A DNA stretch of 37,350 nt from Candidatus Muiribacteriota bacterium. GTDB lineage: Bacteria > Muiribacteriota > Muiribacteriia > Muiribacteriales > Muiribacteriaceae. The notes under the pieces are model-generated. The model made no database searches, was not told the DNA's origin, and saw only the letters and a program-made list of their open reading frames with translations. Below, piece by piece: positions 1,613-28,381 of this stretch; the first letter of the stretch is position 1, and the number at the start of each line of letters is the position of its first letter. The position numbers and the translations under genes are program-made. The stretch is taken from assembly GCA_041654635.1 (NCBI GenBank), contig JBAZDD010000001.1:1-37350 (forward strand). The letters are read 5' to 3'.

Positions 1613-2446
1613 TTAACGTATCAAAGCTGTGAGGGCTGTAGATACTTTTGCAAAAAATGATACTCCCGAAGAGCTTTGCACAGGTGTGTAGATATTTATT
1701 TTTTCCAAATCATAACGAAGTTCATCTATAAGATTAAGTTTTTTCAGAATATTGATTAAATCTTTTTTTTCGCTTTCTTTTAAAATTTCTGTGTTAAGAG
1801 CATATATAAGGTTTCTTATAATAAAAATCTGAGAAGTTTTTTCAAGCGCAGTAAAAATCATCTCTTTCTTTCCTGGAAAAGTTTGGTTTTTTATGCTGAA
1901 TGAAACTTCTGCAAGATTAGTTAAATCAATGACTTTTTTAGAGTTGTTTTTTGATTTCAAAGGTTTTTCTACTTTTAGAACCTCTTTTGTTTTGTGAATA
2001 TCTTCAGTTTTTTCTTCAAGTGGTTTTTCTTCAATCTCAAATTCATCGACTTCTTCATTTAAAATATAATTTGCAATATCAATCAGTTTTTTATGTTTTG
2101 TTTTATTAATAAATTCTCTGCATAACTCAGGATAATGTTTAAAAAAATTATTTTCCTGTAGATAACTTAAAGAATGAAAGCTTATTTTTTCTGACGGTGA
2201 ATTAATATTTTCAGCAAAAAATAAAATAAAATCATGGTCATTTCTTTTTGATATTATTGAAAAAATTATTTCAGCAAGCTCATTATTGCCTTGATTAAGT
2301 ATAAAAAGATTGTATAAATCTTTTGATGATAAAATATCATATATTAAAAATAAAACTTCATTATCTTTTTTCTTTTCATAATGTTCCTTATAAAGAAAAA
2401 GATATTCATTAAGCTGTTTTTCAATAATTTTGGGTATTGGTTCCAT
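1613..2446 (-). CDS. Hypothetical protein (277 aa), no motif recognised
   Basis: Long uninterrupted ORF with an ATG start, divergent from the 2540 ORF. Lys/Glu-rich central linker (EEKPLEEKTEDIHKTKEVLKVEKPLKSK). No catalytic or binding motif identified by eye. Confidence 0.55.
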   Translation of the reverse strand: MEPIPKIIEKQLNEYLFLYKEHYEKKKDNEVLFLIYDILSSKDLYNLFILNQGNNELAEIIFSIISKRNDHDFILFFAENINSPSEKISFHSLSYLQENNFFKHYPELCREFINKTKHKKLIDIANYILNEEVDEFEIEEKPLEEKTEDIHKTKEVLKVEKPLKSKNNSKKVIDLTNLAEVSFSIKNQTFPGKKEMIFTALEKTSQIFIIRNLIYALNTEILKESEKKDLINILKKLNLIDELRYDLEKINIYTPVQSSSGVSFFAKVSTALTALIR

Positions 2447-2479
2447 TTTTACCTCTCAATACATTTATCGGAACTGATA

Positions 2480-2508
2480 TTGTAAAAATTTAAATATATT
2501 GTTAGAAT
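2480..2508 (+). promoter_or_regulatory. Sigma-70-like promoter candidate for the Hint-like/STAS (and possibly polC) transcription unit
   Basis: TTGTAA (2480-2485), a 17-nt spacer, then TAGAAT (2503-2508), about 30 nt upstream of the ATG at 2540. The SD sequence GGAGGA lies at 2530-2535. The AT-rich background makes chance matches likely. Confidence 0.3.
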
Positions 2509-2539
2509 ATTAACTTAAGAATTACAGTGGAGGAAGATA

Positions 2540-3601
2540 ATGTCTGACAGACAGGAAGGTCTTTTGGCGGGGAATGATATATTAACCGAAAACGGTTATA
2601 TTAGCATTGGAGAATTAAAAGAAAAAGATAAAGTAATATGTGCAGGTGGCTGGGGACAGGTTGCTGTATCAAAAATCAAAAAAATTAAAAAAGAAAAATA
2701 TAAAGGTCAAGTTGTTGAGTTTCTTGTTGAAGGAAAAAAGAAAATAAGAATGCTTCCAAAACAGGTATGTTTTTCAAAATTTGATTTTACCGGGAATGCG
2801 TATTACATAGTTCTTATTTATCGTCAACAGAAAGGTTGGAGAATTGGTCTTGAAACCGATATGCGTGGATTAAACAAACAGAATTTGAATTATGATGATA
2901 AATTCTGGGTACTTGATATTTTACAGGATGAGATGGAAGCAATATATTTTCAGCATCTTTATTCATACAGATTTGGAATACCTATGGTTAATTTTGAGTC
3001 TAAAAATGATAAATTTAATTTCAACCAGGATTTTATTGATAAAATCTTTACCATAATTGATACAGAAGAAAGAGCAGAACAGGTTTTTGACGAACTTTCA
3101 ATGTATAGAGACTATCCTTATTACATTGCTCCTAACAAGCAGTTCGGAACAAAACTTTTAACAATAATAATGTTTGGAAATAAAGAAAGAGCTCCTGAGG
3201 ATGAATGGCATCTTCACAGAATATATGTAAATGTTGATCATAATAAAATTTCTTATGGAAAAACAAGTATAATTGACCCTGCAAGTAAATCTGCATGGAA
3301 TATTAATACAATAAGAAAAGATTATGACGAATTGAATAACTTTGCAAATGTTCTTGCTGGATTTGAAGAACTTGAAATAATAAGACGTTCACAACTTACA
3401 AGTCAGTCACCTTTCTTTTATTTTCCGGCAACCCATCTTAAAAAAACCATGCTGCTTCCTGTATATAATAAAAAAGAAAAGAAAATTGATGAAAAAAGAA
3501 TAGAAAATGTATCAATGGGCGAATATGAAGGCGAAGTTTATTCAATAGAAGTCGAAAATTTGAGAAACCTTGTCGCAAATGATATACTGGTTTACAGTTA
3601 A
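2540..3601 (+). CDS. Free-standing intein-like (Hint-fold) protein with degenerate splicing residues and a roughly 200-aa central insert
   Basis: N-terminal GLLAGNDILTENGYISIGEL resembles intein block A. C-terminal GEVYSIEVENLRNLVANDILVYS-stop resembles blocks F/G. Nucleophile Cys1, block-B TxxH and the terminal HN are all substituted. The ORF has its own SD and ATG, with no flanking extein sequence. Confidence 0.65.
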   Translation: MSDRQEGLLAGNDILTENGYISIGELKEKDKVICAGGWGQVAVSKIKKIKKEKYKGQVVEFLVEGKKKIRMLPKQVCFSKFDFTGNAYYIVLIYRQQKGWRIGLETDMRGLNKQNLNYDDKFWVLDILQDEMEAIYFQHLYSYRFGIPMVNFESKNDKFNFNQDFIDKIFTIIDTEERAEQVFDELSMYRDYPYYIAPNKQFGTKLLTIIMFGNKERAPEDEWHLHRIYVNVDHNKISYGKTSIIDPASKSAWNINTIRKDYDELNNFANVLAGFEELEIIRRSQLTSQSPFFYFPATHLKKTMLLPVYNKKEKKIDEKRIENVSMGEYEGEVYSIEVENLRNLVANDILVYS

Positions 3602-3610
3602 GAGGATTTT

Positions 3611-3916
3611 ATGGATATTAATGTAATTTTAAATGAAGAAGAATTGGAAGTCACGCTTGAAATTGCTGGTGAAATCACAATAAATAACTTTAATGAACTT
3701 TCTACAACAATTGAAAAAAATATGGGAAAAAACATTGATTTCATACTTGATTTTTCAGGTGTTACATACATCGATTCAGCTGGGATTGGTGGTCTTGTTG
3801 CAAAACTAAAAGAAATTTTCAATTACGGTGGTAATTTAAAAATAATAAATACTCCATCAAAAATTCTTAAACTTTTCAGGTTGACAAAACTTGACAAGTT
3901 TTTTGAAATCTACTGA
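3611..3916 (+). CDS. STAS-domain anti-sigma-factor antagonist (SpoIIAA/RsbV-like)
   Basis: 101 aa. Motif DFSGVTYIDSAGIGGLV carries the phosphorylatable Ser in the DSAG context. The C-terminal KILKLFRLTKLDKFFEIY is typical of the family. Starts 9 nt after the previous stop. Confidence 0.9.
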   Translation: MDINVILNEEELEVTLEIAGEITINNFNELSTTIEKNMGKNIDFILDFSGVTYIDSAGIGGLVAKLKEIFNYGGNLKIINTPSKILKLFRLTKLDKFFEIY

Positions 3917-3972: not shown

Positions 3973-6900
3973 ATGTCTAATTTTATTATTGAACTTGAAG
4001 AAGAAGATTTCAAAAATATTACAGGCGAATCATATTCATATATAGTTAATCATCAACTTATTGTGGATTCTGCTACAAATAATATAAAATTTAAATTGTT
4101 TTCATCAGAAGAAAATTTTTCAAAAATAAACATTTCAGAAATAGAAAAAAAATTTTTAACAAAGTATCCTGGAACTCCAGGTAATCTGAAAATTAATCTG
4201 ATAAAACCAAAAAGCAATATAAAAGATGTAAATCTTGCTAAAGAAAATATAATAAAAAAAGTTGCTTCTATTAATGGAAGAACAAAGCTTTTTCCAAGAT
4301 TTGCAAAAAACATTGAGTTTGAGTCTAACTCTGTAAAAATTATTATTGAAGCAAATTATTTAAATACAATAAATGATTTTGTAAAAAAAATTGAGAAAAT
4401 CTGTCGTGATGAATTTTTTAAATACAATTCTTCAAAACCTGATAAAGTTTTATTTGAAACTTTTGAAAATAAAAATATTTTTCCTGATATTGAACCAGAA
4501 GTAATTGTATATGAAGAAAGACCGGTTCAACCCAGACCAAAACCAGTTGTGAATAATACTAAAAAAAACGAATTTGCATATAGAAACAGAAGAAATAAAA
4601 ATTACTCAAAGTGTGATATCAATACAATAAGACTTGATACTGATGTAAGTGTTAAAGGCAAAATACTTCACTGTGAAGATATTAGAGCCACCAAAAATGG
4701 GAAATTTATTCATTCATATATTTTGTCAGACAAACTTGATTCAGTATATGTAAAAAGTTTTGAAAAAGAAGAAAAGCCTCTTTGTAAAAAAGGTCAATTT
4801 GTTGAAGTAAAAGGCAGGGTTAAATATGATGAATTTCAGAAAGAAACAGTAATATACTGTGATGAAATTTCTGAATCTGAACCTGAAACAAGAATGGATA
4901 ATTATCCTGAGAAAAGAGTCGAGCTTCATCTTCATACAAAAATGTCAATGGATGATGCAACTTGTGATATAAATGAAACAGTAGCTCTTGCTGCCAAATG
5001 GGGTCATAAAGCAATAGCGATAACTGATCATGCTGTTGTTCAGGGATTTCCAGTTTTTTATAATGCCTGCAAAAAAAATAATATTAAACCAATTTTTGGT
5101 GTAGAAGGATATTTATTTACAGGTGATGAAAATAATTTCAGAAATAAAGCTTCAAAAGATAAAACATTTCATATAATAATATTGGTAAAAAATAATACAG
5201 GAAGAAAGAATTTATACAAAATAATATCTGAATCCCATCTAAATTATTTTTACAGCAGACCATTAATTCCTCTTTCAATTATTGAAAAATATAAAGAAGG
5301 GCTTATTTTTGGCTCAGCATGTGAAAGAGGAGAACTTTTCCGAGCAGTATTAAATAAAAAAAGTGATGAAGAAATTGCTGAAATAGCTCAAAGATATGAT
5401 TTTTTTGAAATTCAGCCCATAACCAATAATAAATTTCTTATAAGACAGGGTGTGGTAGCTGATGAAGAAGAATTGAGAAATTTAAACAGACAGATTGTAA
5501 ATCTGGGAGAAAAATTTAATAAACCTGTTGTTGCAACCTGTGATACACATTTTCTTGACCCATGGGATTTTGAATACAGAAAAGTATTACAGGCAACAAA
5601 AGGATATGCTGATTTCATGTTTCAGCCAGAGCTTTATTTAAGAACAACCGATGAAATGCTCGAAGAATTCAGTTATCTTGGCGAAGAAAAATCAAAAGAA
5701 GTATGTGTTGACAATACTGTTGCAATAAGCGAGCTTATAGAAGAATTTAAACCAATACCAGATGGATTTTATCCACCTTCAATTGAAAATGCAGAAGAAA
5801 ATCTTGTTAAAATGGTAAACAAAAATGCAGAAGAAATATATGGGAATCCGCTTCCTGAAGTTGTCAGAGAAAGAATAGATTTTGAGCTTGATTCAATTAT
5901 TAAATATCAATTTTCAACACTTTTTTTTCTTGCTCATCTTCTTGTAAAACGATCACTTGATGATGGATATCTTGTTGGTTCAAGAGGTTCGGTAGGTTCT
6001 TCAGCGGTAGCAAGATTTTCAAATATAACTGAAGTTAATCCGCTTCCTCCTCATTATGTATGTGAAAATTGTAAATATTCCGAATTTTTTACTGATATTG
6101 ATATTGTTGGAGTTGACCTTGAGGATAAAAATTGTCCAAAGTGTCAGAATAAATTGAAAAAAGATGGATTTAATATTCCATTTCAGGTTTTTATGGGATT
6201 TGAAGGTGATAAAGTGCCTGATATCGATTTGAACTTTTCGGGTGAATATCAGTCTGTAATTCATAAATATGTCGAAGAACTGTTTGGAAGCTCGCATACT
6301 TTTAAGGCTGGAACAATATCCATGCTGAAAGAAGGACAGGGAGCAATGTATTTAAAAAAATATCTTGAAAGAATTTCAGATTCAACAACCAGCCTGAAAA
6401 AAAGTGATGAAATAAGGATTGTTAAAGGAATAGAAGGGGTAAAAAAAACTACTGGACAGCATCCGGGTGGGGTAATAGTTGTTCCGAAAAACATGGAAAT
6501 ATATGATTTTTCTCCTGTAAATTATCCAGCTAATAAAAAAGAAACTGGAGTAATTACAACTCATTTTGATTATCATGTTATGGATGCTCAGCTTGTAAAA
6601 CTTGATATGTTAGGTCACGACGATCCAACAATTATAAAACATCTTCAGGAAATGACCGGAGTGGATATATTTAAAATCCCTCTTGATGATAAAGAAACAA
6701 TGAAATTTTTTACAGAAGTTAGAAGCACGGCTATTCCTGAATTTGGAACCAATTTTGTAAAAAGAATGTTAGAAGACACAAGACCGACAAAATTTACAGA
6801 ACTTATAAGACTTTCAGGACTTTCACATGGAACAGATGTCTGGACAAATAATGCACAGGAGCTTATTAGAAGTCAGACAGCAGATCTGGCTAATGTTATA

Positions 6901-7608
6901 TCAGTTCGAGATGACATAATGAACTATCTTATAAATAAAGGATTGCCAAAAAAATTATCATTTGATATTATGGAACATGTGAGGAAAGGAAAAGGTCTTA
7001 AACCTGAAATGGAAGAATTGATGAAAAAACATCAGGTTCCAGACTGGTATATTGATTCATGCAAAAAAATAAAATACATGTTTCCAAAAGCACATGCTGT
7101 AGCTTATGTAGTAATGGCCTACAGAATTGCATGGTTCAAGGCAAATTATCCACGAGAGTTTTATTCAGCCTATTTCGGAGTAAGAACATTTAATGGAATA
7201 ACTTCTAAAGATATTGTACAGGGAAAAAAATATGTTATTGACAGAATAAATATATTAAGGTCTTTCAAAGATGCATCAGCTACTGATAAATCCCTTTTAT
7301 CATATCTTGAAGTTGCTCTCGAGGCGATGGAAAGAGGAATTGATTTTATTGAAGTTGATTTATACAAATCAGACTATTCAAGATATAAACTTGAAGGGGA
7401 AAATTCATTAAGATGCCCTCTGATATCACTTGAAGGACTTGGGGAAAAGGCAGCAATGAAAATATGTGAAGAAAGAGAAAAAAAACCTTTCAGAACTCAG
7501 CAGGATTTAGTTGCAAGATGTGGATTAAATAAAAATGTTCTCGCTTTACTGCGAGAGAAAAACTGTATGGGAAATCTGCCGGAAACAGATAACCTTTCAC
7601 TGTTCTAA
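3973..7608 (+). CDS. polC: DNA polymerase III alpha subunit, PolC type, apparently lacking the internal proofreading exonuclease domain
   Basis: OB-fold segment (VSVKGKILHCEDIRATKNGKFIHSYILSD...VEVKGRVKYDEFQKE). PHP start RVELHLHTKMSMDDA...AITDHAVVQGFP. PolC Zn-finger PPHYVCENCKYSEFF...NCPKCQNKL. Palm motif PDIDLNFSGEYQ, then TTGQHPGGVIVVP and the LVKLDMLGHDDPT motifs. 1211 aa against about 1430 for canonical PolC. Confidence 0.95.
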   Translation: MSNFIIELEEEDFKNITGESYSYIVNHQLIVDSATNNIKFKLFSSEENFSKINISEIEKKFLTKYPGTPGNLKINLIKPKSNIKDVNLAKENIIKKVASINGRTKLFPRFAKNIEFESNSVKIIIEANYLNTINDFVKKIEKICRDEFFKYNSSKPDKVLFETFENKNIFPDIEPEVIVYEERPVQPRPKPVVNNTKKNEFAYRNRRNKNYSKCDINTIRLDTDVSVKGKILHCEDIRATKNGKFIHSYILSDKLDSVYVKSFEKEEKPLCKKGQFVEVKGRVKYDEFQKETVIYCDEISESEPETRMDNYPEKRVELHLHTKMSMDDATCDINETVALAAKWGHKAIAITDHAVVQGFPVFYNACKKNNIKPIFGVEGYLFTGDENNFRNKASKDKTFHIIILVKNNTGRKNLYKIISESHLNYFYSRPLIPLSIIEKYKEGLIFGSACERGELFRAVLNKKSDEEIAEIAQRYDFFEIQPITNNKFLIRQGVVADEEELRNLNRQIVNLGEKFNKPVVATCDTHFLDPWDFEYRKVLQATKGYADFMFQPELYLRTTDEMLEEFSYLGEEKSKEVCVDNTVAISELIEEFKPIPDGFYPPSIENAEENLVKMVNKNAEEIYGNPLPEVVRERIDFELDSIIKYQFSTLFFLAHLLVKRSLDDGYLVGSRGSVGSSAVARFSNITEVNPLPPHYVCENCKYSEFFTDIDIVGVDLEDKNCPKCQNKLKKDGFNIPFQVFMGFEGDKVPDIDLNFSGEYQSVIHKYVEELFGSSHTFKAGTISMLKEGQGAMYLKKYLERISDSTTSLKKSDEIRIVKGIEGVKKTTGQHPGGVIVVPKNMEIYDFSPVNYPANKKETGVITTHFDYHVMDAQLVKLDMLGHDDPTIIKHLQEMTGVDIFKIPLDDKETMKFFTEVRSTAIPEFGTNFVKRMLEDTRPTKFTELIRLSGLSHGTDVWTNNAQELIRSQTADLANVISVRDDIMNYLINKGLPKKLSFDIMEHVRKGKGLKPEMEELMKKHQVPDWYIDSCKKIKYMFPKAHAVAYVVMAYRIAWFKANYPREFYSAYFGVRTFNGITSKDIVQGKKYVIDRINILRSFKDASATDKSLLSYLEVALEAMERGIDFIEVDLYKSDYSRYKLEGENSLRCPLISLEGLGEKAAMKICEEREKKPFRTQQDLVARCGLNKNVLALLREKNCMGNLPETDNLSLF

Positions 7609-18803: not shown

Positions 18804-18923
18804 GATTTCATATTATAACACATTTAAATTATTAAAAAAAAATAAAAAAATTATTTAAAAATAAATAATTATGTGTTAAAATACGATAATAATATAATAA
18901 TTACAGTACTGGACTTTATTTAT

Positions 18924-21146
18924 ATGAAAAAAAACGTATATTTTGAAGATGAATCTGTTCGCATATCAATGCAGACAAAACTTATGATACTATTTCTTAT
19001 TGTTGGAATTATTCCCTTGATAATACTTGGTTACAGAGCTTTTAACGACCAGAAAATTGTTATCAGAGAGCTTATTATAACCTCTAACTCAGGTATTGCA
19101 AACGTTGTTGCTCAGGAACTTAATCATAAAATTATCACTGTTCATCAGATGTTGAATTCTACCTCAAGAATACCAAGTTTTCAGGATGATAATTTTGGTG
19201 AAGAAATTGAAACAATTTTAAGAACAACAATAAAAAATTTTCCTATTTTCAATGCACTTTATTATATTGACAGATACGGAACAAAAGGTATGGCAGCTTA
19301 TGATGATTTTGGTGTAAAGGTTGAATCTCTTGAAAAAATAACTGAAATTGACCCTAATGTTTTAAAATACTGGTATCAGGGTATCGTCCGTGGAGCAAGT
19401 GTAAGTAAAGGCTTTTATTCAGATGTATATTTTAAAAAAAATAATAAAATTATGAGTGATGATGTTGTTGAACCTTTCCAGTTAATGGGAGTTTATGTAA
19501 AAGATAAACTTTCAGATATGATTGGAGTTCTTATAGCTGAAATAAAACTCAGTGAAATATGGGAAGTTGTAAACAGAATAAAATTTGGAGAAACTGGTTT
19601 TGCTTTTGTTGTTGATGATAAATCAGGATTTCTTATTGCTCATTCAAACGATAAAATAAATCCTGGAATTAAACTGCTTTCTGAAGATAAAATTCAAGAA
19701 ATTAAATCTTTTGGTCTCGGGGGCTCTACAACTCTTGACAGATATTCAAGAACGCTGAAACTTGTTTCATACGTTCAGACTGAACTTTACACCAAAGGTA
19801 ACGTTACAGATATTAAAGAATTATTTACTCCCGACTGGGGTGTTGTTGTAGAACAGACTGAAAGAGAAGCTTTTGAACCAGCAAAAAGACTTATGTTGAA
19901 AATTATTTTCATAGTTGTTCTTGGAACCATGCTGGCAGTTCTTCTGGCTATATTATTTGCTCATGGTATTACACGTGCGATGAAAACTCTGCATGTAGGA
20001 GCTTTAAATATTGCAAACGGGGATTTAACTCAGGAGCTTTTTATTGAATCTGAAGATGAAATTGGTGAGCTTGCAAGAGCTTTTGATAAAATGAGAATTA
20101 ATCTTCGAAAAAAAATTAATGATTTAAAAATTCTATATGAAATAAGTCAGACCATAAGCGCAATACTTGATTATAAAGAATTAATGTCAAAAATAATGGA
20201 TGTTACTGTAAAAGTTCTTGAAGCTGAAAAAGGTTCAATAATGCTTTTTGATGATGAGTCAGAAATGCTTACCATCGAAGCTTCTTATGGATTACCGACA
20301 GATATTAAAAGAGATACTTTTATTAATCCGAATAAAGGTATTGTTGCATGGGTTCTTAGAACAGGAAAACCTCTTCTTATTTATGATACGATGAAAGAAG
20401 CTGGATTTGAAAAAATGAAAGGAAGAAAAGTTGAAAGTGGAACACTGCTTTCCGCTCCACTCAAAGTTAAAGATAAAATTCTTGGTGTTATTAATATTTC
20501 TAAATCAATACCAAATACTTATACTGAAAGTGATAAGGAGCTTTTTACTGCAATCGTGCTTCAGGCTGCCATCGCTATCGAAAAAGCTATTTTATACCGA
20601 CTTGCAATTACAGATGGTATGACAAAACTATATATTCACAGATATTTCCAGCAGAGATTTGATGAAGAACTTGCACGTGCAATAAGATATAAAAAACCAC
20701 TTTCTCTTATAATGTTTGATATTGACCATTTTAAAAATTTCAATGACACATATGGACATCAGGTTGGAGACAAAGTATTAAAAATTGTTGCAAGACTGAT
20801 TGAAAAAAGTATAAGAGACGTTGATATTGCCGCAAGATATGGTGGTGAAGAGTTTGCAATCATACTACCCGAAAAGGATTGTGAGGCTGCTGCAATCCCT
20901 GCTGAAAGAATAAGAAAAAATATTGAAGATAATGAATTTTATGTTGAAGATAAAATAGTTCCAATAAGAGTAAGTCTTGGGGTTTCATCGTATCCGGAAC
21001 ATTCAGATAATAAAGCAGAATTAATAGAATTTGCGGATACAGCTCTTTATTATTCAAAAGAGACAGGCAGAAACCGATATACATTGTTCTCGCCTGAAAT
21101 ACTTGAAAAATTAAATAAAATGAAGTGTGAAAAAAAGGGAGAATAG
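18924..21146 (+). CDS. Membrane sensor diguanylate cyclase: periplasmic Cache-like domain, TM, HAMP, GAF, GGDEF
   Basis: TM helices at LMILFLIVGIIPLIILGY and IIFIVVLGTMLAVLLAILFA. HAMP segment NIANGDLTQELFIESEDEIGELARAFDKM. GAF segment LEAEKGSIMLFDDE...GVINISK. Active site RYGGEEFAIILP, with an I-site RDVD five residues upstream. The start could be the ATG at 18924 (chosen), the ATG at 18969 or the GTG at 18873. Confidence 0.9.
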   Translation: MKKNVYFEDESVRISMQTKLMILFLIVGIIPLIILGYRAFNDQKIVIRELIITSNSGIANVVAQELNHKIITVHQMLNSTSRIPSFQDDNFGEEIETILRTTIKNFPIFNALYYIDRYGTKGMAAYDDFGVKVESLEKITEIDPNVLKYWYQGIVRGASVSKGFYSDVYFKKNNKIMSDDVVEPFQLMGVYVKDKLSDMIGVLIAEIKLSEIWEVVNRIKFGETGFAFVVDDKSGFLIAHSNDKINPGIKLLSEDKIQEIKSFGLGGSTTLDRYSRTLKLVSYVQTELYTKGNVTDIKELFTPDWGVVVEQTEREAFEPAKRLMLKIIFIVVLGTMLAVLLAILFAHGITRAMKTLHVGALNIANGDLTQELFIESEDEIGELARAFDKMRINLRKKINDLKILYEISQTISAILDYKELMSKIMDVTVKVLEAEKGSIMLFDDESEMLTIEASYGLPTDIKRDTFINPNKGIVAWVLRTGKPLLIYDTMKEAGFEKMKGRKVESGTLLSAPLKVKDKILGVINISKSIPNTYTESDKELFTAIVLQAAIAIEKAILYRLAITDGMTKLYIHRYFQQRFDEELARAIRYKKPLSLIMFDIDHFKNFNDTYGHQVGDKVLKIVARLIEKSIRDVDIAARYGGEEFAIILPEKDCEAAAIPAERIRKNIEDNEFYVEDKIVPIRVSLGVSSYPEHSDNKAELIEFADTALYYSKETGRNRYTLFSPEILEKLNKMKCEKKGE

Positions 21147-21153
21147 TTTTTAA

Positions 21154-22653
21154 ATGAATTTTACAAGATATATGTTAATAAACATTCTTAATTCTGTTAT
21201 ATGGTTTCTTTTTTCATTCCGACTTTCCAGCAATTACAGCTGGATTTTCTGGATTTTCACAGCATTTTTTTTCATAACAAACACTATATATTTCTGGAAT
21301 AAAAATGATGATGAAGTATTTCAACGAACCGACACTTCTTTGTACATGACTTTTAACAATGGGGTTATGACTCTGGTGTTTTTCATGTTTATGACTGAAA
21401 TCGAACTTATTTATAAATTTCTGGCCATAGCACTTTTTCTTTTTATTGCACTTATTGCAACCAATTCAAGAAATGGTGACAGAAAAGATGTGTTTGAACT
21501 GAAAAATTTACTTGATTCAAAAATTCAGGAATTAGGTGAACTTCACAACATAAGTTCTGCCATAAACAGCATATTAGACCTTGAAAGATTGCTTGATATG
21601 GTTTTGTCAGTAACAGTAGATGTTTTAAAAGTTGGAAGAGTAAGTCTTTTTCTTTTTGATGAGGATAAAAAAAATCTTATACTTAAAATCAGTAAAGGGT
21701 TGAAAAAAGAGCTTATAAATAATCTTAAAATAAAAATAGGTGAAGGAATTATTGGAAAAGTTGCTGAAACAGGAAAACCACTTCTTATAAAAAATATTGA
21801 AAAAGAAATGCCAGAGCTTATTGAAAAATCAAAACATAATGAAAATCAGGATGAAAATAAAAAAGAGCATTATAAAACAAATTCTTTTCTATGTGTTCCC
21901 CTGAAAATTAAAAATGAAACTATTGGAGTTTTAAGCGTTAATGATAAAAATAATAATGAAATTTTTAACGAAAATGATCTTGAACTACTTACAATTCTTT
22001 CATCCCAGATAGCTGTTGCAATAGAAAATGCAAATCTTTATGATACAATGAAAGACAGTTATAAAAGTACAATCAAAGCACTTTCAAATGCTCTTGATGC
22101 AAAAGATTCCTATACTGGTGGTCATTCTTCCCAGGTAACAAAATACGCACTTCCTATTGCACTGGATTTAGGATTTGATAAACATTTTATTGAAAGACTT
22201 GAATACGCTGGGATGCTTCATGATATAGGTAAAATAGGAATTATTGAAACAATTTTGAATAAAAATGGAAGACTTACAGAAGACGAATTTGATGTAATTA
22301 AAAAACATCCAGTGATTGGTGCTGACATTTTAAGTTCAGTTTCTTTTCTTGAGGATATAGTTCCCATTGTAAGATATCATCATGAAAGATGGGATGGTAA
22401 TGGTTATCCTGAAGGTCTGAAAGGCGAAGATATACCTGTAGGTGCCAGAATTATTGCTGTAGCAGATACATTTGATGCTATGACCTCAGATAGACCATAC
22501 AGAAAAGGGCTTCCAGCAGAAATCGCAAGAGCTGAAATTGAAAGATGTTCTGGAAGTCAGTTTGACCCGGCGGTTGTTAAATCATTTTTAAAACTTTTTG
22601 ATGAAGGAAAAATTGTTGTTGAAAAATATGAATCTAAAAACAGGTGGTTTTAA
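21154..22653 (+). CDS. Membrane-anchored GAF/HD-GYP c-di-GMP phosphodiesterase
   Basis: N-terminal hydrophobic helices. GAF segment (KIGEGIIGKVAETGKPLLI...GVLSVNDKNN...IAVAIENANLY). HD-GYP motifs GGHSSQV, MLHDIGKIGI and HHERWDGNGYPEGL. Confidence 0.92.
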   Translation: MNFTRYMLINILNSVIWFLFSFRLSSNYSWIFWIFTAFFFITNTIYFWNKNDDEVFQRTDTSLYMTFNNGVMTLVFFMFMTEIELIYKFLAIALFLFIALIATNSRNGDRKDVFELKNLLDSKIQELGELHNISSAINSILDLERLLDMVLSVTVDVLKVGRVSLFLFDEDKKNLILKISKGLKKELINNLKIKIGEGIIGKVAETGKPLLIKNIEKEMPELIEKSKHNENQDENKKEHYKTNSFLCVPLKIKNETIGVLSVNDKNNNEIFNENDLELLTILSSQIAVAIENANLYDTMKDSYKSTIKALSNALDAKDSYTGGHSSQVTKYALPIALDLGFDKHFIERLEYAGMLHDIGKIGIIETILNKNGRLTEDEFDVIKKHPVIGADILSSVSFLEDIVPIVRYHHERWDGNGYPEGLKGEDIPVGARIIAVADTFDAMTSDRPYRKGLPAEIARAEIERCSGSQFDPAVVKSFLKLFDEGKIVVEKYESKNRWF

Positions 22654-23411
22654 TGTATATTGATTCTCATGCCCATATTACTCATGAAAATTTTGATGCC
22701 GACCGTGACGAAGTCATAAACAGAGCCATTGAGAATAAAATAGAAAAAATTATTAATGTATCATACGATCTTGATACCATGATGGATACTTTAAAAATTG
22801 TTGAGCAGTATGATTCAATTTATGGAACACTGGGAATTCACCCACATCATGCTGATGATTTTGATGATTCAATTCAAAATTATCTTATAAACTACCTTAA
22901 ATATAGAAAAATAATTGCGCTGGGAGAAATCGGACTTGATTATTTCAAATGTTATTCAAAAAAAGAAAATCAGATCAGTGCTTTTGAAAAACAGCTTGAA
23001 ATTGCAAAAAAATTTGAAAAACCAGTTGTTATTCACTGTCGAGACGCTTATGATGAAACTCTCAGCATTTTAAAAAATTCAAATATAAAACACGGGGTTA
23101 TGCACTGTTTTTCAGGCAACGAGAAACAGGCTGAAGATTTTCTTGAACTGGGATTGCATATTTCTTTTACAGGCACAGTAACGTGGAGAAAAAGCGATGT
23201 TTTACCGGTAAAAATTGTTCCAAAAGACAGACTGCTTCTTGAAACTGACTGCCCATACATGACACCTTCTCCAAATCGCGGAAAAAGAAATGAACCAGCA
23301 TTTATCATACACACAGCACAGAAAATTGCCGATATCAGAAATGAAAGTATTGAAGAACTCAGCAGTAATTGCTTTCAGAATACTTTAACACTTTTCAGGG
23401 GGTTGGATTAA
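22653..23411 (+). CDS. tatD: TatD-family metal-dependent hydrolase/DNase
   Basis: The ATG overlaps the upstream stop (TAATG). Motifs YIDSHAHI, GEIGLDY, VVIHCRDA, VMHCFSG and LLLETDCPYMTP. Confidence 0.92.
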   Translation: MYIDSHAHITHENFDADRDEVINRAIENKIEKIINVSYDLDTMMDTLKIVEQYDSIYGTLGIHPHHADDFDDSIQNYLINYLKYRKIIALGEIGLDYFKCYSKKENQISAFEKQLEIAKKFEKPVVIHCRDAYDETLSILKNSNIKHGVMHCFSGNEKQAEDFLELGLHISFTGTVTWRKSDVLPVKIVPKDRLLLETDCPYMTPSPNRGKRNEPAFIIHTAQKIADIRNESIEELSSNCFQNTLTLFRGLD

Positions 23412-24109
23412 TGGCTGACGGCGCTGGGGAACATCTTGAAAAATTAGAGCAGGGGTTGAACCTTCTTATTGAGGTTAAATCTGGTCTTTTCAGGGGAAAC
23501 TATCTTTCATCAATTGTTAAAATTGTGAAAAATCAGGAATTATACATACAGATACCTGAAAACAATGATGGAACTCAGGTTAAATTCTGGCCAAAAACTC
23601 TTTTAAGCCTGAGTTTCTTCAGAGAAAATGAACCAGGTGCTATTTACATATTCAATGAACCTTTAATAAGAATTGAGGAAGGTGTAAAGCCAAATCTTGT
23701 AATAGATTTTCCAAAATCTATAGAAAGAATTCAGCGAAGAAACTATGTAAGAGTTGATGTCAGACTCCCGTTTTATTATCAGAAATATACATTAAGCGAA
23801 GAACCGGAAATTATTCCAATTTTGAAAAAAGGTTATATTATGGACGTTTCAGGGGGTGGAGTTTTTCTCAGAACTCCTGAAAAAATGGAAAAAGATCAGT
23901 TTGTTCAGACAAAATTCAAGCTTGGTGATGAAGAGTTTGATATAAAAGGTAAAATAATGAGAGCAATATCGATAAGACGCGGAAAATCTGTAATGTATAA
24001 ATATGGAATAAATTTTGAAGAAATAATTGATATGGTTAGAAGAAAAATAATAGGTTATGTTTTTGATGTTGAACGTTCAAATATCAGAAAACAGAAAGAG
24101 GCTTACTGA
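23411..24109 (+). CDS. PilZ-domain c-di-GMP receptor with a YcgR-like N-terminal domain
   Basis: The ATG overlaps the tatD stop (TAATG). PilZ motifs QRRNYVRV (RxxxR) and DVSGGGVFL (DxSxxG), preceded by a roughly 110-aa PilZN-like domain. Confidence 0.8.
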   Translation: MADGAGEHLEKLEQGLNLLIEVKSGLFRGNYLSSIVKIVKNQELYIQIPENNDGTQVKFWPKTLLSLSFFRENEPGAIYIFNEPLIRIEEGVKPNLVIDFPKSIERIQRRNYVRVDVRLPFYYQKYTLSEEPEIIPILKKGYIMDVSGGGVFLRTPEKMEKDQFVQTKFKLGDEEFDIKGKIMRAISIRRGKSVMYKYGINFEEIIDMVRRKIIGYVFDVERSNIRKQKEAY

Positions 24110-24546
24110 TGAAAATTAAAATAAATATTATTGATGAAAAAAACTTTATCAGTCCTGAGTATATGTCTGAAAATGCTGCCGGAGCTGATATTTATTCCTG
24201 TGTTGATGAAAATATTTTAATAAAACCAAATTGCAGCGCGCTTATTCCCTGTGGATTCTCAATGGAAATCCCCCATGGTTATGAAGTGCAGATAAGACCT
24301 CGAAGTGGTCTTGCTTTTAAAAACTGTATAACCGTACTTAATTCTCCGGGAACAATTGATTCAGATTATCGTGGAGAAGTTAAAGTTATTCTTATCAACC
24401 ATGGGAAAGAAGATTTTACAGTAACAAATGGAATGAGAATAGCTCAGATGATTGTCAATAAAGTTGAGAAAGCTCAATTTGAAATTTCTGACAATTTATC
24501 TGAAACAGGTAGAGGCAGTGGTGGATTTGGTCATACCGGAGTATAA
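24109..24546 (+). CDS. dut: dUTP diphosphatase (trimeric dUTPase)
   Basis: The five dUTPase motifs: AAGADIY, IRPRSGLA, SPGTIDSDYRGEV, RIAQM and GRGSGGFGHTG. Confidence 0.95.
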   Translation: MKIKINIIDEKNFISPEYMSENAAGADIYSCVDENILIKPNCSALIPCGFSMEIPHGYEVQIRPRSGLAFKNCITVLNSPGTIDSDYRGEVKVILINHGKEDFTVTNGMRIAQMIVNKVEKAQFEISDNLSETGRGSGGFGHTGV

Positions 24547-26138
24547 TGAATAACGTTCAGAAGCTTGAAAAAGAGAATAGAGAACTAAAACATGCGTTAG
24601 ACAACTTGATTATTAACTTCAATAAGCTGTCAAATAGATTTCTTCATTCAACCACACTTGAAGAAAGTCTTGATGCAATTTTCGATCTTTTTTTTGAAAT
24701 GTTTACCTATGAAGAAATTGCAGTTTATTTAATGAAAGACAATTTTGAACTTGTAAAATACAGAAATTTATCCGAAGAATCCTATGAAGAAGTATCAGAT
24801 ATTCAGGAAGAAAACATATTTGACTGGGTTATTCTTCAAAATAAGAGAATAATATTGGACAGAAAATACAAGGAAGGAAGTTATATATTTCTTCCTCTAA
24901 TAATGAAAAATCGCTCGCTTGGTATTCTGCTTATTGGAACAGCAAAAGACAGTAACAATCTTACAAAAGAAGAACAGGACATTCTTGATATAATATCAGC
25001 TCAGGTAACCGTTTCAATTGAAAATTCAACATTATATTCTTCAATTGATGATCAGAAAAGAAAACTTGATAATATTAAAAATTATCTGAATAATGTTATT
25101 GAAAATTTTAACGAAGGTCTTATTGTAGTTGACAACGATTATATTGTAACCACAATAAATAAGGCAGCCGAAACTTTTCTTGGATTTACAAAAAAAGATA
25201 TTCTGCTGAAAAACATAAGACTTTTTTATTCAAACTGGTTTACACCTGAATTTTTTGAAAAAATTGCCCAATGTCTTCATGACAGTGAAATAAAAAATCA
25301 CATGGTGGAACTTGCGGGGAAATACCTGAAATTTACAATACTTCCATTTGAAGGAATTCATAAAAACATTACAGGGGCAATAATTCATATTGAAGATATT
25401 ACAACTTCAATGGAACTTGAAAAATTAAAAGAAATTGATGATTTTAAAGATCAGGTTATTTCAAACGTTTCACATGAACTTAAAACTCCTCTTACTTCGA
25501 TAAGAGCTTATACAGAAACTTTGCTTGAGATAATCGCATCTGATAAAAAAGGCTATCCTGAAGAATTTAAAGAATTTTTATCCGTAATCAACGATGAAAG
25601 TGAAAGATTATTGAATCTTATAGTAGAAATTCTTGATACTTCAAAGCTTGAATCGGGAAATGTTTCATTAAATTTGGTAAATCTTGATATAGGTGTTATA
25701 ATTAACAAAATCATTACAGGAATAGATTATTTAATTAAAGAAAAAAAAATCACAGTAGTAAAAAAATACAGCGATCAGGAAAATTTTGTTATCAAAGCTG
25801 ATTTAATAAAACTTGAACAGGTTTTTTATAACATAATAAGTAATGCGATAAAATATAATAAAGATGGCGGTAAAATAATTATTTCTTTAACTAAACAGAA
25901 AAAATCTGTTAAAATAGAAGTTGAAGACACCGGAATTGGAATTGCTGAAAAGAATCTGGAAAAACTTTTTGAAAAATTTTTCAGAGAACAGTCTGAACAC
26001 ACTGATAAAATTGGAGGATTCGGATTGGGACTTAATATTGTGAAAAATATAATAGACCTGCACCAGGGTTTTATTACATTTAAATCGGAAAAAGGGAAGG
26101 GAACAAAAGTAATTATTAAATTTCCTTATGAATTATGA
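24546..26138 (+). CDS. Cytoplasmic sensor histidine kinase: GAF, PAS, HisKA, HATPase_c
   Basis: GAF segment (SLGILLIGTAKDSNN...VTVSIENSTLY). PAS segment (VIENFNEGLIVVDNDYIVTTINKAAETFLGF). H-box VSHELKTPLTSI. N-box ISNAIKYN. G-boxes EDTGIGI and GGFGLGLNIV. No TM helix. TAATG overlap with dut. Confidence 0.9.
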   Translation: MNNVQKLEKENRELKHALDNLIINFNKLSNRFLHSTTLEESLDAIFDLFFEMFTYEEIAVYLMKDNFELVKYRNLSEESYEEVSDIQEENIFDWVILQNKRIILDRKYKEGSYIFLPLIMKNRSLGILLIGTAKDSNNLTKEEQDILDIISAQVTVSIENSTLYSSIDDQKRKLDNIKNYLNNVIENFNEGLIVVDNDYIVTTINKAAETFLGFTKKDILLKNIRLFYSNWFTPEFFEKIAQCLHDSEIKNHMVELAGKYLKFTILPFEGIHKNITGAIIHIEDITTSMELEKLKEIDDFKDQVISNVSHELKTPLTSIRAYTETLLEIIASDKKGYPEEFKEFLSVINDESERLLNLIVEILDTSKLESGNVSLNLVNLDIGVIINKIITGIDYLIKEKKITVVKKYSDQENFVIKADLIKLEQVFYNIISNAIKYNKDGGKIIISLTKQKKSVKIEVEDTGIGIAEKNLEKLFEKFFREQSEHTDKIGGFGLGLNIVKNIIDLHQGFITFKSEKGKGTKVIIKFPYEL

Positions 26139-28381
26139 ATAGAAAAATATACGAAAAATTCAGTATTGAGGATTGGATAAGGCTTGTAAGTATAAACAAT
26201 GCTATTGTTTCTGAGTTGCAGCTTGACAAAGTGCTTATTCTTATTCTTAAAAACGCTTTATCCTCAATAAATGCAATGCATGGTTCACTCATGCTTTTTG
26301 ATGATGAAGAATCTGATACTCTGAAAATTGCTGTTGCAGTAGGTATTCCACATAATATTATAAAAAAAGTTAAAATTAAAGTCGGGGAAGGAATTAGTGG
26401 AGAGGTTGCCAGAACAGGTGAGCCAGTGCTCATTCAGGATGTTGAGCATGACCCGGTTTTTGCAAGAAAAAACAGACCAAGATATTTTACAAAATCATGT
26501 CTTTCAGTTCCTCTTGTGTTTAAAAATAAAGTTATAGGTGTGTTCAATGTAAATGATAAGAAAAACTCAAAACAGTTTACTGAAAAAGACCTTATTTTTT
26601 CAAATACACTCGCTTCTCAGGCTGCGATTGCCATAGAAAATGCAAAATTATACATGCAGGTAAAAAAAGATAAAGTCAAACTTGAAAATCTTAACGTTGA
26701 ACTTGAAGAAAGTCTTTTTGCACTTTCTGAATATACTGAAGAACTTTTTGTATTTCATGAATTTACAAAAAAAATTTTTGATAAAGTTATAACATATATG
26801 GATTTAGATGAACTTACAGGAAAAATTTGTGAACTTTTCATGGAGCTTGAACCAATAAAATCAGATCTTGTAATTCTAAACTTTTTTGACAAAAATATTT
26901 TCAAAGTTTACAGTAAATCTGGTGAAGAAAAAAATTTTTCAAGCAGTGAAAAAGAAATAATATTAAAGATTTCAGATTATTGTCAGAAAAATAATGAATC
27001 AATGAGAATTCCTTTTGAAGAGGAAAGATATAAATTTTTTGAACAGGAAGCTTTAAAACATTACAATTCACTTCTTTCTGTTCCATTATATGGTAAAAGC
27101 GGCTCAATAGGTGTGCTCACTCTGGTAAAGAAAAATAAAAAATCAGGTTTATTTGATGAAAAAATCAGAAATCTGATGCTTATTTTTTCACTTCAAGTTT
27201 CAACAGCTCTTTCTCTGGTTTCAGCTTTAGAAGAAGTAATGAAAAAAAAGGTAATGGAAAATGAGTTGAAAGTTGCAGCAAAAATCCAGAAAATGTTTCT
27301 TCCTCGTGAAAACCCACTTGTTCCGGGACTTGAATTAAGTCATATCAACATTCCGACTTTTGAAGTTGGTGGAGATTATATTGATTTTCTCTGGCATAAT
27401 AATTCTAATCTGGGAATAAGTATTGGAGATGTTTCTGGAAAAGGCATTCCTGCGTCTCTCATAATGGCACTTACAAAATCCATAGTAAAGTCAAATGTTA
27501 CTCTTTACGATTCTCCAAAAGAATTACTTGAAAAAATAAACTATGAACTTCTTACAGAAATTGAAGGACACAGATTCGTTACCATGGCTTTTGGATTTTA
27601 CAACTGGGAGACAAGAAAACTTGAAATTGCGAAAGCAGGTCATAATCCACCACTTATATTTAAGAAAAGTGGAGAAATAATATCAATAAATCCTCAGGGG
27701 CTTTTCCTTGGAATGTTCCGAGACTGTATAATAAGACAGGAAGAATACAATCTTGATGTCGGTGATGTTCTTGTTTTATATACTGACGGGGTTATTGATG
27801 CAGAAGATTCAAAAGGTGTGAATTTTGGGTTAAAAAAAATGGAGAAAATAATCAGAGATAATATTGAAAAAAGTCCTGAAGAAATAAAAGACAAATTAAT
27901 AAAAAAACTTGAAAACTTTTATAAAGGTCAAAAACAGAATGATGATATATCAATTATAATTTGTAAAGCAATAGATTATTTTGAACGAAAATTTATAATA
28001 TCTTCAAATAAATCCCAGATACCAAGGTTACACTGGTACATTCAGAATCTTCTTAAAATGAAAGGTTATGAAAATGAGGATTTGAAGTTTAAAATAAGAC
28101 TCATTATAGATGAAATTTTAAGCAATGCTATTGAGCATGGTAATAAATACAATGATAATCGAAACATAGCAATATACCATAAAATTACATCAAAAAATCT
28201 CACAATTAAAATAATAGATGAAGGCAAGGGTTTTAACTGGCAGGAAAAAATCAGTAAGCAATGTGATATTAACATAAAATCAGAACGAGGCAGAGGTATT
28301 ATTATTGTTAAAGAGCTTTGCTCTTCAATAAAATACAACAAAAAAGGAAATGAAGTAACAATTAAAATTGATTTGGAATAG
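26135..28381 (+). CDS. Fusion protein: GAF, GAF, PP2C/SpoIIE-type phosphatase, RsbW/SpoIIAB-like serine-kinase (HATPase) domain
   Basis: GAF1 (KVGEGISGEVARTGEPVLI...GVFNVNDKKN...AAIAIENAKLY). GAF2 (SVPLYGKSGSIGVLTLVKK). PP2C motifs GGDYIDF, GDVSGKGIPASLIMA, LVLYTDGVIDAE and NDDISIII. C-terminal IDEILSNAIEHGN...IIDEGKGF...ERGRGIIIVKEL. ATGA overlap with the kinase gene. Confidence 0.85.
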   Translation: MNRKIYEKFSIEDWIRLVSINNAIVSELQLDKVLILILKNALSSINAMHGSLMLFDDEESDTLKIAVAVGIPHNIIKKVKIKVGEGISGEVARTGEPVLIQDVEHDPVFARKNRPRYFTKSCLSVPLVFKNKVIGVFNVNDKKNSKQFTEKDLIFSNTLASQAAIAIENAKLYMQVKKDKVKLENLNVELEESLFALSEYTEELFVFHEFTKKIFDKVITYMDLDELTGKICELFMELEPIKSDLVILNFFDKNIFKVYSKSGEEKNFSSSEKEIILKISDYCQKNNESMRIPFEEERYKFFEQEALKHYNSLLSVPLYGKSGSIGVLTLVKKNKKSGLFDEKIRNLMLIFSLQVSTALSLVSALEEVMKKKVMENELKVAAKIQKMFLPRENPLVPGLELSHINIPTFEVGGDYIDFLWHNNSNLGISIGDVSGKGIPASLIMALTKSIVKSNVTLYDSPKELLEKINYELLTEIEGHRFVTMAFGFYNWETRKLEIAKAGHNPPLIFKKSGEIISINPQGLFLGMFRDCIIRQEEYNLDVGDVLVLYTDGVIDAEDSKGVNFGLKKMEKIIRDNIEKSPEEIKDKLIKKLENFYKGQKQNDDISIIICKAIDYFERKFIISSNKSQIPRLHWYIQNLLKMKGYENEDLKFKIRLIIDEILSNAIEHGNKYNDNRNIAIYHKITSKNLTIKIIDEGKGFNWQEKISKQCDINIKSERGRGIIIVKELCSSIKYNKKGNEVTIKIDLE

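Follow-up and report, generated by a model that had tools for sequence, protein, structure and literature searches.

Locus, gene and expression signals

We analysed a 37,350-nt stretch of DNA (the window) from Candidatus Muiribacteriota bacterium (GenBank assembly GCA_041654635.1, contig JBAZDD010000001.1, positions 1 to 37,350 of the forward strand). At 2540..3601 on the plus strand it carries a gene for a free-standing, intein-derived protein of 353 amino acids (aa), called the Hint protein below, which is homologous over its full length to the inteins found in motif III of UvrD/PcrA helicases. The source is a metagenome-assembled genome (MAG). The identical protein has been deposited as 'hypothetical protein' and, at the Joint Genome Institute (JGI), as 'DNA helicase-2'. 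An earlier reading of the DNA letters, made without database searches (the sequence-only reading), had described the product as a free-standing intein-like protein in which every splicing residue is replaced.

The open reading frame (ORF) has its own ATG, and a Shine-Dalgarno sequence, GGAGGA (2529..2534, plus strand), lies five nt 5' of it; GGAG or GGAGG is kept in the orthologous loci. Further upstream, a consensus scan found a sigma-70-type promoter (2480..2508, plus strand) made up of TTGTAA, a 17-nt spacer and the extended -10 element TGtTAGAAT. The ATG, GGAGGA and TTGTAA-17-TAGAAT had been named in the sequence-only reading and are present as it described. By consensus alone the promoter is at chance level, as 22 such sites were found in this AT-rich region and 16.2 +/- 5 were expected. 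In an alignment of the intergenic region, however, the -35 TTG, the extended -10 TGnTAnAAT and a TTATCGG motif are kept in four Muiribacteriota genomes while the flanking sequence has diverged, and because of this conservation the promoter of the Hint gene is probably real. The TTATCGG motif is located in the divergent intergenic region at 2465..2471 (plus strand), with a core TATCG (2466-2470) that is invariant in the four aligned regions. It could be an operator, a regulator-binding site or an UP-like element.

Descent from UvrD/PcrA motif-III inteins

Single-sequence searches with the Hint protein gave only sub-threshold matches or none in Pfam, NCBIfam, PHROGs, PADLOC and the sequences of the Protein Data Bank (PDB): PHROGs returned one weak match (E 0.18), and the PADLOC scan returned no match to the protein. 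A word-indexed homologue search found six Muiribacteriota proteins only. The helicase inteins became visible only by exhaustive profile search, with an alignment of the six Muiribacteriota orthologues (A1) as query. This search gave 891 proteins at E<=1e-3, of which 84 at E<=1e-30 (best E = 3e-69), and the matched proteins are mostly intein-bearing UvrD/PcrA helicases. In nearly all top matches, query residues ~3-353 align as one unbroken stretch to residues ~250-615 of proteins of ~1000-1100 aa. Pfam assigned UvrD-helicase, Intein_splicing and UvrD_C to the matched proteins, and mostly also the PcrA/UvrD tudor domain. The junctions in the helicases correspond to motif III, with VVGDxDQ followed by the intein Cys on the upstream side and the intein end VVHN followed by (S/C)IYxWRGA on the downstream side.

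A single BLASTP comparison aligned aa 8-352 of the Hint protein to residues 1-345 of a 347-aa phage intein with 23% identity (E = 5e-14). This intein is annotated in the UvrD/Rep helicase precursor of Escherichia phage PaulScherrer (MZ501100.1), and the same type is present in phi92-like phages. UvrD inteins as a class were listed previously (Novikova et al., 2016; PMC4760082). By this comparison the ORF is a full-length homologue of one specific intein family, with homology that takes in the ~215-aa insert and extends beyond the Hint-like ends. The alignments thus identify the protein as an intein by descent, originating from motif III of a UvrD/PcrA helicase. The sequence-only reading was right about the Hint identity and missed this origin. 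A chance resemblance of the two ends to inteins, one outcome that would have undone that reading, was rejected by the end-to-end homology with E down to 3e-69 and by the match to the Hint fold described below.

Hint fold

The N-terminal Hint half spans aa 7-82 (2558..2785, plus strand) and holds intein blocks A and B. It is supported by TIGR01445 at aa 13-70, by the family profile, which matches the N-terminal part of the gp41-1 and bacterial intein-like (BIL) structures, and by AlphaFold2 (AF2) strands with a predicted local distance difference test score (pLDDT) >90. The C-terminal half, with blocks F and G, covers aa 301-353 (3440..3598, plus strand), where Intein_splicing matches aa 277-351, TIGR01443 matches aa 332-351, and the profile aligns with PI-PkoII and the MJ0781 intein. 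The Pfam Intein_splicing match to the single sequence (2.8e-6) is under the family threshold; the sub-threshold intein matches of the single sequence fall at both ends of the protein. A profile built from an alignment of 40 sequences (A2) matched solved inteins at 1e-11.

Structure prediction with six sequences was not usable (pLDDT 43), and prediction with A2 gave a model with a pLDDT of 88.1 and a predicted template modelling score (pTM) of 0.86. A Foldseek search of the PDB with this model returned mini-inteins, the hedgehog Hint domain and a BIL domain, with target-normalised template modelling (TM) scores of 0.82-0.87 and a probability of 1.0. The model superimposes on the Mtu RecA mini-intein (2in9) with a TM of 0.87 and a root-mean-square deviation of 3.0, and on the hedgehog domain (1at0) with a TM of 0.83. 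The Hint fold is therefore built from both termini of the protein. In a viral structure library, the three best matches had E ~1e-16 and query-normalised TM scores (TMq) of 0.59-0.72 over ~380 columns. All three are of phage origin, a DNA helicase and a DNA methyltransferase among them, and they evidently carry the same Hint-plus-insert architecture; these phage relatives share the whole of it, insert included, with TMq up to 0.72.

Loss of splicing residues and exteins

Residue replacements were scored column by column against 118 genuine inteins of the family. Intein residue 1 is Cys in 97% of them and is Gly7 or Leu8 in the window protein, depending on the alignment. The block B Thr (98%) and His (99%) are replaced by Leu72 and Gln75, in the sequence L72-P-K-Q75, and the block F Asp (99%) by Ser335. 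At the C-terminus, the penultimate His and the terminal Asn (99% each) are Tyr352 and Ser353, with the stop codon directly following. The position that would be the +1 residue of the C-extein, a nucleophile in inteins, is thus occupied by a stop codon. The loss of every splicing residue, the LPKQ in block B and the Tyr-Ser end had all been read correctly from the sequence alone. The Leu that had been put at the Cys1 position is right within one position; the Cys is lost in either alignment.

The ORF begins 6-7 residues before intein residue 1 and ends directly after the last intein residue, and it is flanked by a divergent gene 93 nt upstream and, on its downstream side, by a STAS gene at a distance of 9 nt. 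When PcrA proteins were used as tblastn queries, neither the window nor the orthologous loci showed any trace of a helicase, and no duplicated fragments of the target gene (pcrA) were found around the free-standing genes. In the absence of helicase remnants and duplicated fragments, a disrupted helicase gene and a flanking repeat of the kind seen at yeast WHO elements are ruled out. This bears out the proposal that there is no extein on either side. Because four defining features of inteins were tested and found lacking, the protein does not qualify functionally as an intein.

The insert

The insert occupies aa 83-300 (2786..3439, plus strand), at the position of a homing endonuclease, and its homology to the inserts of the helicase inteins is seen in an unbroken alignment to ~118 of them. 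At ~215 aa it agrees well with the ~200 aa (residues 85-290) estimated in the sequence-only reading. No LAGLIDADG or HNH Pfam family was found in ~50 members scanned, even at E<=1; that reading had not recognised either motif with confidence. The AF2 model has the insert opening with two beta-strands, unlike the helix of LAGLIDADG. PDB profile searches with A1 and A2 gave no match outside the Hint ends, and Foldseek results with the whole model were dominated by the Hint fold.

GIY-YIG (PF01541) was the only catalytic family that recurred in the insert. Four genuine inteins gave sub-threshold matches in the same register, with E = 0.0026, 0.053, 0.18 and 0.29; the matches are at the start of the insert and cover positions 1-69 of the 78-position profile, the best scoring 18.5 bits (cut-off 22.6). 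In the A2 scan two of 40 members had a PF01541 match. Profile comparison by hhalign of the insert with four GIY-YIG domains gave P = 0.004-0.014 in the expected register; the four reference sequences scored E = 3e-19 to 3e-10 in Pfam. Over aa 88-145 the AF2 model has strands at 88-95 and 99-105, a short helix, a strand at 121-128 and a helix at 131-145, which is the GIY-YIG order. One frameshifted relative is labelled 'predicted GIY-YIG superfamily endonuclease' at JGI. We therefore mark a GIY-YIG-like core at aa 86-152 (2795..2995, plus strand), on the grounds of AF2 topology, the sub-threshold PF01541 matches in relatives, hhalign and the residue comparison given below. The window protein itself has no PF01541 match. 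A faint GIY-YIG resemblance had been noted before; it finds some support in the four relatives, the hhalign values and the topology, but not in a match to the protein itself. The GIY-YIG assignment of the insert is at most probable and stays tentative. GIY-YIG domains were stated in 2009 not to be known inside inteins (Dassa et al., 2009; PMC2677866).

In the inteins, the insert has strongly conserved polar residues: Y91 (96%), R101 (95%), R113 (92%), E117 (96%), D120 (88%), E138 (94%), H194 (94%) and H226 (83%). The window insert has V91, K113, N117, Q138 and Y194 in place of Y91, R113, E117, E138 and H194, which are 92-96% conserved, and the aligned Muiribacteriota orthologues have the identical replacements except for Thr91 in one. 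The equivalents of the catalytic GIY-YIG residues in the window protein are Val91, Trp100, Arg101 (kept) and Gln138, where the relatives have Tyr (96%), Tyr (69%), Arg (95%) and Glu (94%). The core keeps R101, G103, R109 and D120. Since the conserved polar residues are replaced, whatever the fold may be, a working endonuclease in the window protein appears unlikely. The column comparison shows, then, the loss of all splicing residues and the replacement of five of the most conserved polar residues of the insert.

Maintenance of the gene in Muiribacteriota

Five full-length orthologues were found, each 353 aa long and with 63-74% identity. Comparison with two of them gave a ratio of non-synonymous to synonymous substitution rates (dN/dS) of 0.12-0.16 at dS values above 1. 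Constraint is seen separately in all three regions (Hint N half, insert and Hint C half); in the insert, dN is 0.17-0.19 and dS 0.95-2.2. The gene order dnaG, rpoD, divergent gene, Hint gene, STAS, PolC-type polymerase, ABC transporter is identical in all five Muiribacteriota loci examined. A genome scan with A1 found the gene in three Muiribacteriota species representatives only.

These substitution rates show long-term purifying selection on the gene. By its sequence and context it is a maintained gene, and neither a mobile intein nor a broken piece of a larger gene. The domesticated Hint scaffold proposed in the sequence-only reading, as opposed to a mobile intein, is thereby borne out by the orthologues, the dN/dS of 0.12-0.16, the synteny and the conserved promoter. 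The counter-case, in which the ORF is the C-terminal part of a larger disrupted gene, is dismissed by the full-length homology, the intact orthologues and the lack of helicase remnants. A pseudogene or a fragment of a larger gene was likewise rejected, given the intact 353-aa frames, the dN/dS and the conserved promoter.

Other free-standing relatives and their association with pcrA

The A1 profile search also gave proteins of ~340-380 aa without Cys1. A further search, with these as query, uncovered a clade of proteins of ~370 aa that occurs in Candidatus Ozemobacter sibiricus, Candidatus Rifleibacterium amylolyticum and other Riflebacteria. Muirbacteria and Riflebacteria have been described as related phyla (bioRxiv 10.1101/2024.01.30.578060). 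In all five Riflebacteria-type loci examined (L006, L007/L008, L011 and L012) the next gene downstream of the homologue encodes a UvrD/PcrA protein of 717-791 aa, at a distance of -17 (overlap) to +17 nt. The adjacent PcrA is intein-free and its VVGDEDQSIYSWRGA motif is intact, i.e., motif III is empty. For 12 further clusters, the longest contig is equal in size to that of a PcrA cluster, which suggests 12 further homologue/PcrA pairs on the same contig. The PcrA proteins of Riflebacteria (~90 clusters) are all 731-810 aa and thus intein-free. Divergence is parallel in the two genes, with 39-57% identity in PcrA and 29-54% in the intein homologue, and this would fit a long vertical co-inheritance of pcrA and the homologue. 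The conserved Riflebacteria block extends past pcrA: in L007 (9436..13017), L011 (8479..11113) and L012 (8386..11113) the pair is followed by a gene for a small CBM_48/AMPK1_CBM protein and one for a multi-GAF protein of ~1020 aa.

Two more free-standing members, P0022 and P0052, are encoded directly downstream of giant ORFs, with no helicase nearby. In these regions (L005, 1..5905, and L009, 1..4833) the giant ORFs are >2563 aa and 1610 aa long, and a radical-SAM gene and a chemotaxis operon, respectively, follow downstream of the free-standing genes.

In a neighbour-joining (NJ) tree, all 30 free-standing proteins are on one side of a split, together with three inteins, which come from divergent PcrA-like helicases. 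The three host proteins (P0080, P0101 and P0106) are tudor-bearing PcrA-like helicases with a degenerate motif III, in which YC precedes the intein and SSPxxF follows it. Their inteins keep Cys1, the terminal His-Asn and Ser+1, and no other inteins are placed closer to the free-standing proteins in this tree.

Cys1 is present in no free-standing member. The block B His is kept in about half of them, the block F Asp in several and the terminal His-Asn in one. Such a patchy distribution is the pattern expected of relaxed constraint at a once-functional site, and points to derivation from a working intein. The Riflebacteria clade retains more of the polar insert residues than the Muiribacteriota clade does: Y91, R101, E117, D120, H194 and H226 are kept, and E138 in about half.

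Family labels in the databases are misleading. P0001, P0156 and P0171 carry the labels 'DNA helicase-2', 'ATP-dependent helicase UvrD/PcrA [Clostridiales bacterium]' and 'predicted GIY-YIG superfamily endonuclease', and none has a helicase domain; P0171 is a frameshifted copy of P0157, the Ozemobacter homologue, in which most of the insert residues are retained.

Neighbouring genes

The STAS anti-sigma-factor antagonist (101 aa; 3611..3916, plus strand) was identified by Pfam STAS (7.9e-15) and TIGR00377 (2.9e-16) and is syntenic. Its distance to the Hint gene is 9, 22, 118 or 324 nt among the orthologues. Co-transcription of the two genes is possible in the window, and because the gap varies from 9 to 324 nt it is not a conserved feature. 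The link to STAS signalling drawn in the sequence-only reading from the 9-nt gap thus has no support other than synteny in Muiribacteriota: the gap varies and no STAS gene lies beside the free-standing relatives elsewhere. Free-standing homologues were indeed found, a point that reading had proposed to check, and adjacency to STAS and polC holds in the five Muiribacteriota loci examined, but no free-standing relative outside that clade has a STAS neighbour. In L002/L003 a second STAS gene is found on the same strand between the divergent gene and the Hint gene.

The PolC-type DNA polymerase III alpha subunit (1211 aa; 3973..7608, plus strand) matches the NF001688 PolC equivalog with 1325 bits and is also syntenic. 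Polymerase residues 391-1211 align to positions 607-1444 of this 1445-position profile, and family scans detected no exonuclease domain in the protein. It looks like a PolC without the 3'-5' proofreading exonuclease insert. The orthologous polymerases in Muiribacteriota are similar in size (1213, 1228 and 1221 aa).

The divergent gene (277 aa; 1613..2446, minus strand) is syntenic in all Muiribacteriota loci, where its product is 257-301 aa long, and its orientation excludes an upstream N-extein. The 277-aa protein had no significant match in Pfam/NCBIfam and none in PHROGs or PADLOC. Elsewhere in the window, 26135..28381 (plus strand) encodes a 748-aa GAF-SpoIIE(PP2C)-HATPase_c_2 fusion. The ORFs at 18873..26138 form with it a run of GAF signalling proteins with GGDEF, HD-GYP-like and histidine kinase domains. 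The domains of the fusion would suit a partner-switching phosphatase/kinase that serves this genome's STAS proteins.

Proposed origin and function

Our preferred explanation, which we hold with moderate confidence, is that the window protein derives from an intein that was domesticated, is no longer catalytic and functions by binding, with DNA as the most likely ligand. The ancestor was a UvrD/PcrA motif-III intein, that is, a Hint domain with a nested endonuclease-type insert of ~215 aa and a GIY-YIG-like core. This intein became a free-standing gene without exteins and probably lost both enzymatic activities, so that a rigid Hint-plus-insert scaffold and its recognition surfaces would remain. 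Since both activities appear to be gone, we infer that the protein most likely acts by binding and not by catalysis. DNA is favoured as the ligand, as a tentative choice at somewhat below even confidence, because a homing endonuclease recognises a long specific site and because WhiA, by analogy, became a DNA-binding regulator.

The family may have begun beside its target gene pcrA in the manner of the yeast WHO elements, or may have a function tied to pcrA; either is suggested because the Riflebacteria sister clade is located directly upstream of an intein-free pcrA. The adjacency fits a history of homing and a PcrA-tied function alike. The Muiribacteriota copy would later have moved to the dnaG-rpoD/STAS-polC region, to be transcribed from its own conserved promoter. 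A more specific history, in which a pcrA intein escaped to a place beside its target and, from the ancestor shared by Muirbacteria and Riflebacteria onwards, was kept as a factor that binds without cutting, a bacterial counterpart of WHO/HO, seems to us rather doubtful as a whole. One speculative role is that of a 'homing-site guardian', which would sit on the empty pcrA motif-III site and shield this essential gene from re-invasion by the intein. A sequence-specific regulator of replication or repair genes is a possible alternative role.

Several observations weigh against the binding protein proposed here, or against parts of its history. All the sequences compared derive from MAGs or metagenomes. 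The GIY-YIG evidence is weak, with PF01541 matches in only 4 of the ~45 inteins scanned. The term 'nuclease-dead' rests on lost conserved residues of an active site that is itself putative, and with R101, R109, D120 and H226 retained a residual or altered activity is possible. A single origin of the free-standing proteins is weakly supported, the branch joining the clades having a length of 0.018 and no bootstrap support. A Muiribacteriota pcrA was not found among the best 120 matches, which are from Riflebacteria (intein-free, 731-810 aa) and then from Firmicutes. Finally, a role in binding another protein would explain the pcrA operon of the sister clade no less well than DNA binding would.

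The last point leads to the strongest competitor, a partner or regulator of PcrA or of the replication-repair machinery that binds protein, e.g., by way of the cleft in the Hint domain where the extein junction used to sit. The operon-like arrangement with pcrA in 5/5 sister-clade loci (gaps -17 to +17 nt), the co-divergence of the homologue with pcrA and the position of the Muiribacteriota gene among dnaG, rpoD and polC all speak for it. We nevertheless consider it a minority prospect, as pcrA is not adjacent in Muiribacteriota or at the P0022 and P0052 genes. We know of no Hint domain or homing endonuclease that binds a helicase. A selfish homing origin also predicts adjacency to the target, and shared function is not required for it (PMC7282813). 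A further competitor is a still active free-standing homing endonuclease of the WHO kind, a selfish element that cuts a near or distant target and spreads by gene conversion. The protein does descend from a homing element, the Riflebacteria relatives adjoin the ancestral target and keep many conserved insert residues, and free-standing GIY-YIG endonucleases beside their targets are well known in phages (PMC2677866). An active enzyme is improbable, however: the window protein and the aligned orthologues have other residues in place of E117, E138, H194, R113 and Y91, no Muiribacteriota locus examined departs from the fixed, syntenic arrangement, and the dN/dS of 0.12-0.16 holds over saturated dS. 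Nor are there duplicated target fragments of the sort that flank WHO elements, and pcrA of Riflebacteria keeps the canonical empty site, which an active enzyme of the ancestral specificity would cut.

Two explanations of a different kind fare worse. A component of STAS partner switching, co-expressed with the adjacent anti-sigma-factor antagonist as the sequence-only reading had suggested, draws on the STAS gene being next in 5/5 Muiribacteriota loci, on the 9-nt gap and on the GAF-SpoIIE-HATPase_c_2 protein encoded in the same window. It becomes quite unlikely in view of the varying gap (9, 22, 118 and 324 nt), the lack of a STAS neighbour at the other free-standing relatives, and the fact that Pfam and NCBIfam find no kinase, phosphatase, sigma or anti-sigma domain in the protein. 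Least probable by far is a functionless, decaying remnant, either an intein pseudogene or a fragment of a disrupted intein-bearing helicase gene. Such a remnant would account for the loss of all catalytic residues, but it is contradicted by the intact 353-aa frame in five genomes at 63-74% identity, the dN/dS of 0.12-0.16 with constraint in all three regions, the conserved promoter and Shine-Dalgarno sequence, the absence of helicase remnants in the flanks, and sister-clade ORFs that are intact down to 29% identity. The non-catalytic binding protein accordingly stays our preferred explanation.

Inteins are usually seen as purely selfish, and the one well-documented case of an intein turned host gene is yeast HO. 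Within the paper library searched, no paper was found on free-standing, orphan or extein-less inteins in bacteria, or on the UvrD/PcrA intein as such. If the proposal is true, intein domestication would also have taken place in bacteria, in deep-branching phyla, and one clade would be tied to the gene that its ancestor parasitised. The family would then be a tractable case for finding out what an intein scaffold can be reused for. The insert points to a type of intein endonuclease that is neither LAGLIDADG nor HNH and is maybe related to GIY-YIG, a combination unknown according to PMC2677866; if true, inteins with a GIY-YIG-type endonuclease would form a class not recognised before. In practical terms, the helicase labels on family members ('DNA helicase-2', 'UvrD/PcrA') are wrong, and other members are only called 'hypothetical'.

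Comparison with known systems

The inteins in motif III of UvrD/PcrA/Rep share with the window protein the order Hint N, insert of ~215 aa, Hint C and a length of 347-370 aa. The window protein differs in that it has no exteins and lacks Cys1, TxxH, the block F Asp, the terminal His-Asn and the +1 nucleophile. Five conserved polar residues of its insert are replaced, and it has a gene to itself, with a separate promoter and a constant place on the chromosome. The BIL (PDB 2lwy) and hedgehog (1at0) Hint domains have the same fold (TM 0.82-0.83), but they are found within larger proteins, keep the nucleophile for cleavage/ligation and carry no endonuclease insert. In sequence the window protein is closer to true inteins than to these domains.

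GIY-YIG homing endonucleases and UvrC (I-TevI and Seg among the former) resemble the first ~70 residues of the insert in the strand-strand-helix-strand-helix order. The intein relatives have vYLMy...GyRIGxT...R...EA...E...P in register with GIY...YIG...R...E. The similarity is sub-threshold (best E = 0.0026) and the conserved Asn of the enzymes is not evident. In the window protein the equivalents of Tyr, Tyr and Glu are Val, Trp and Gln.

For the proposed non-catalytic role, WhiA/DUF199 would be the mechanistic precedent. WhiA, cited in PMC7282813, is a LAGLIDADG homing-endonuclease scaffold that lost cleavage and was kept by bacteria as a DNA-binding transcription regulator. It combines LAGLIDADG with a helix-turn-helix (HTH) and has no Hint domain; its function was shown experimentally, whereas the role of the window protein is a proposal.

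The closest precedent is the yeast WHO/HO family. Like the window gene, these genes are intein-derived, have no exteins and act independently of protein splicing (Coughlan et al., 2020; PMC7282813). WHO genes are found beside the target/host gene FBA1, with transposed copies elsewhere, and the HO lineage was domesticated (PMC7282813). The parallel here is a Riflebacteria clade beside pcrA and a Muiribacteriota clade that is located elsewhere and conserved; adjacency to pcrA is seen in 5/5 Riflebacteria-type loci and is absent in the window. WHO/HO proteins descend from the VMA1 intein and are active nucleases with a LAGLIDADG endonuclease and a C-terminal zinc finger. The window protein, in contrast, has a GIY-YIG-like insert with degenerate nuclease residues and no zinc finger, as it ends with the Hint domain. 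No duplicated pcrA fragment was found around the free-standing genes, and the host is bacterial, with no meiosis-linked homing.

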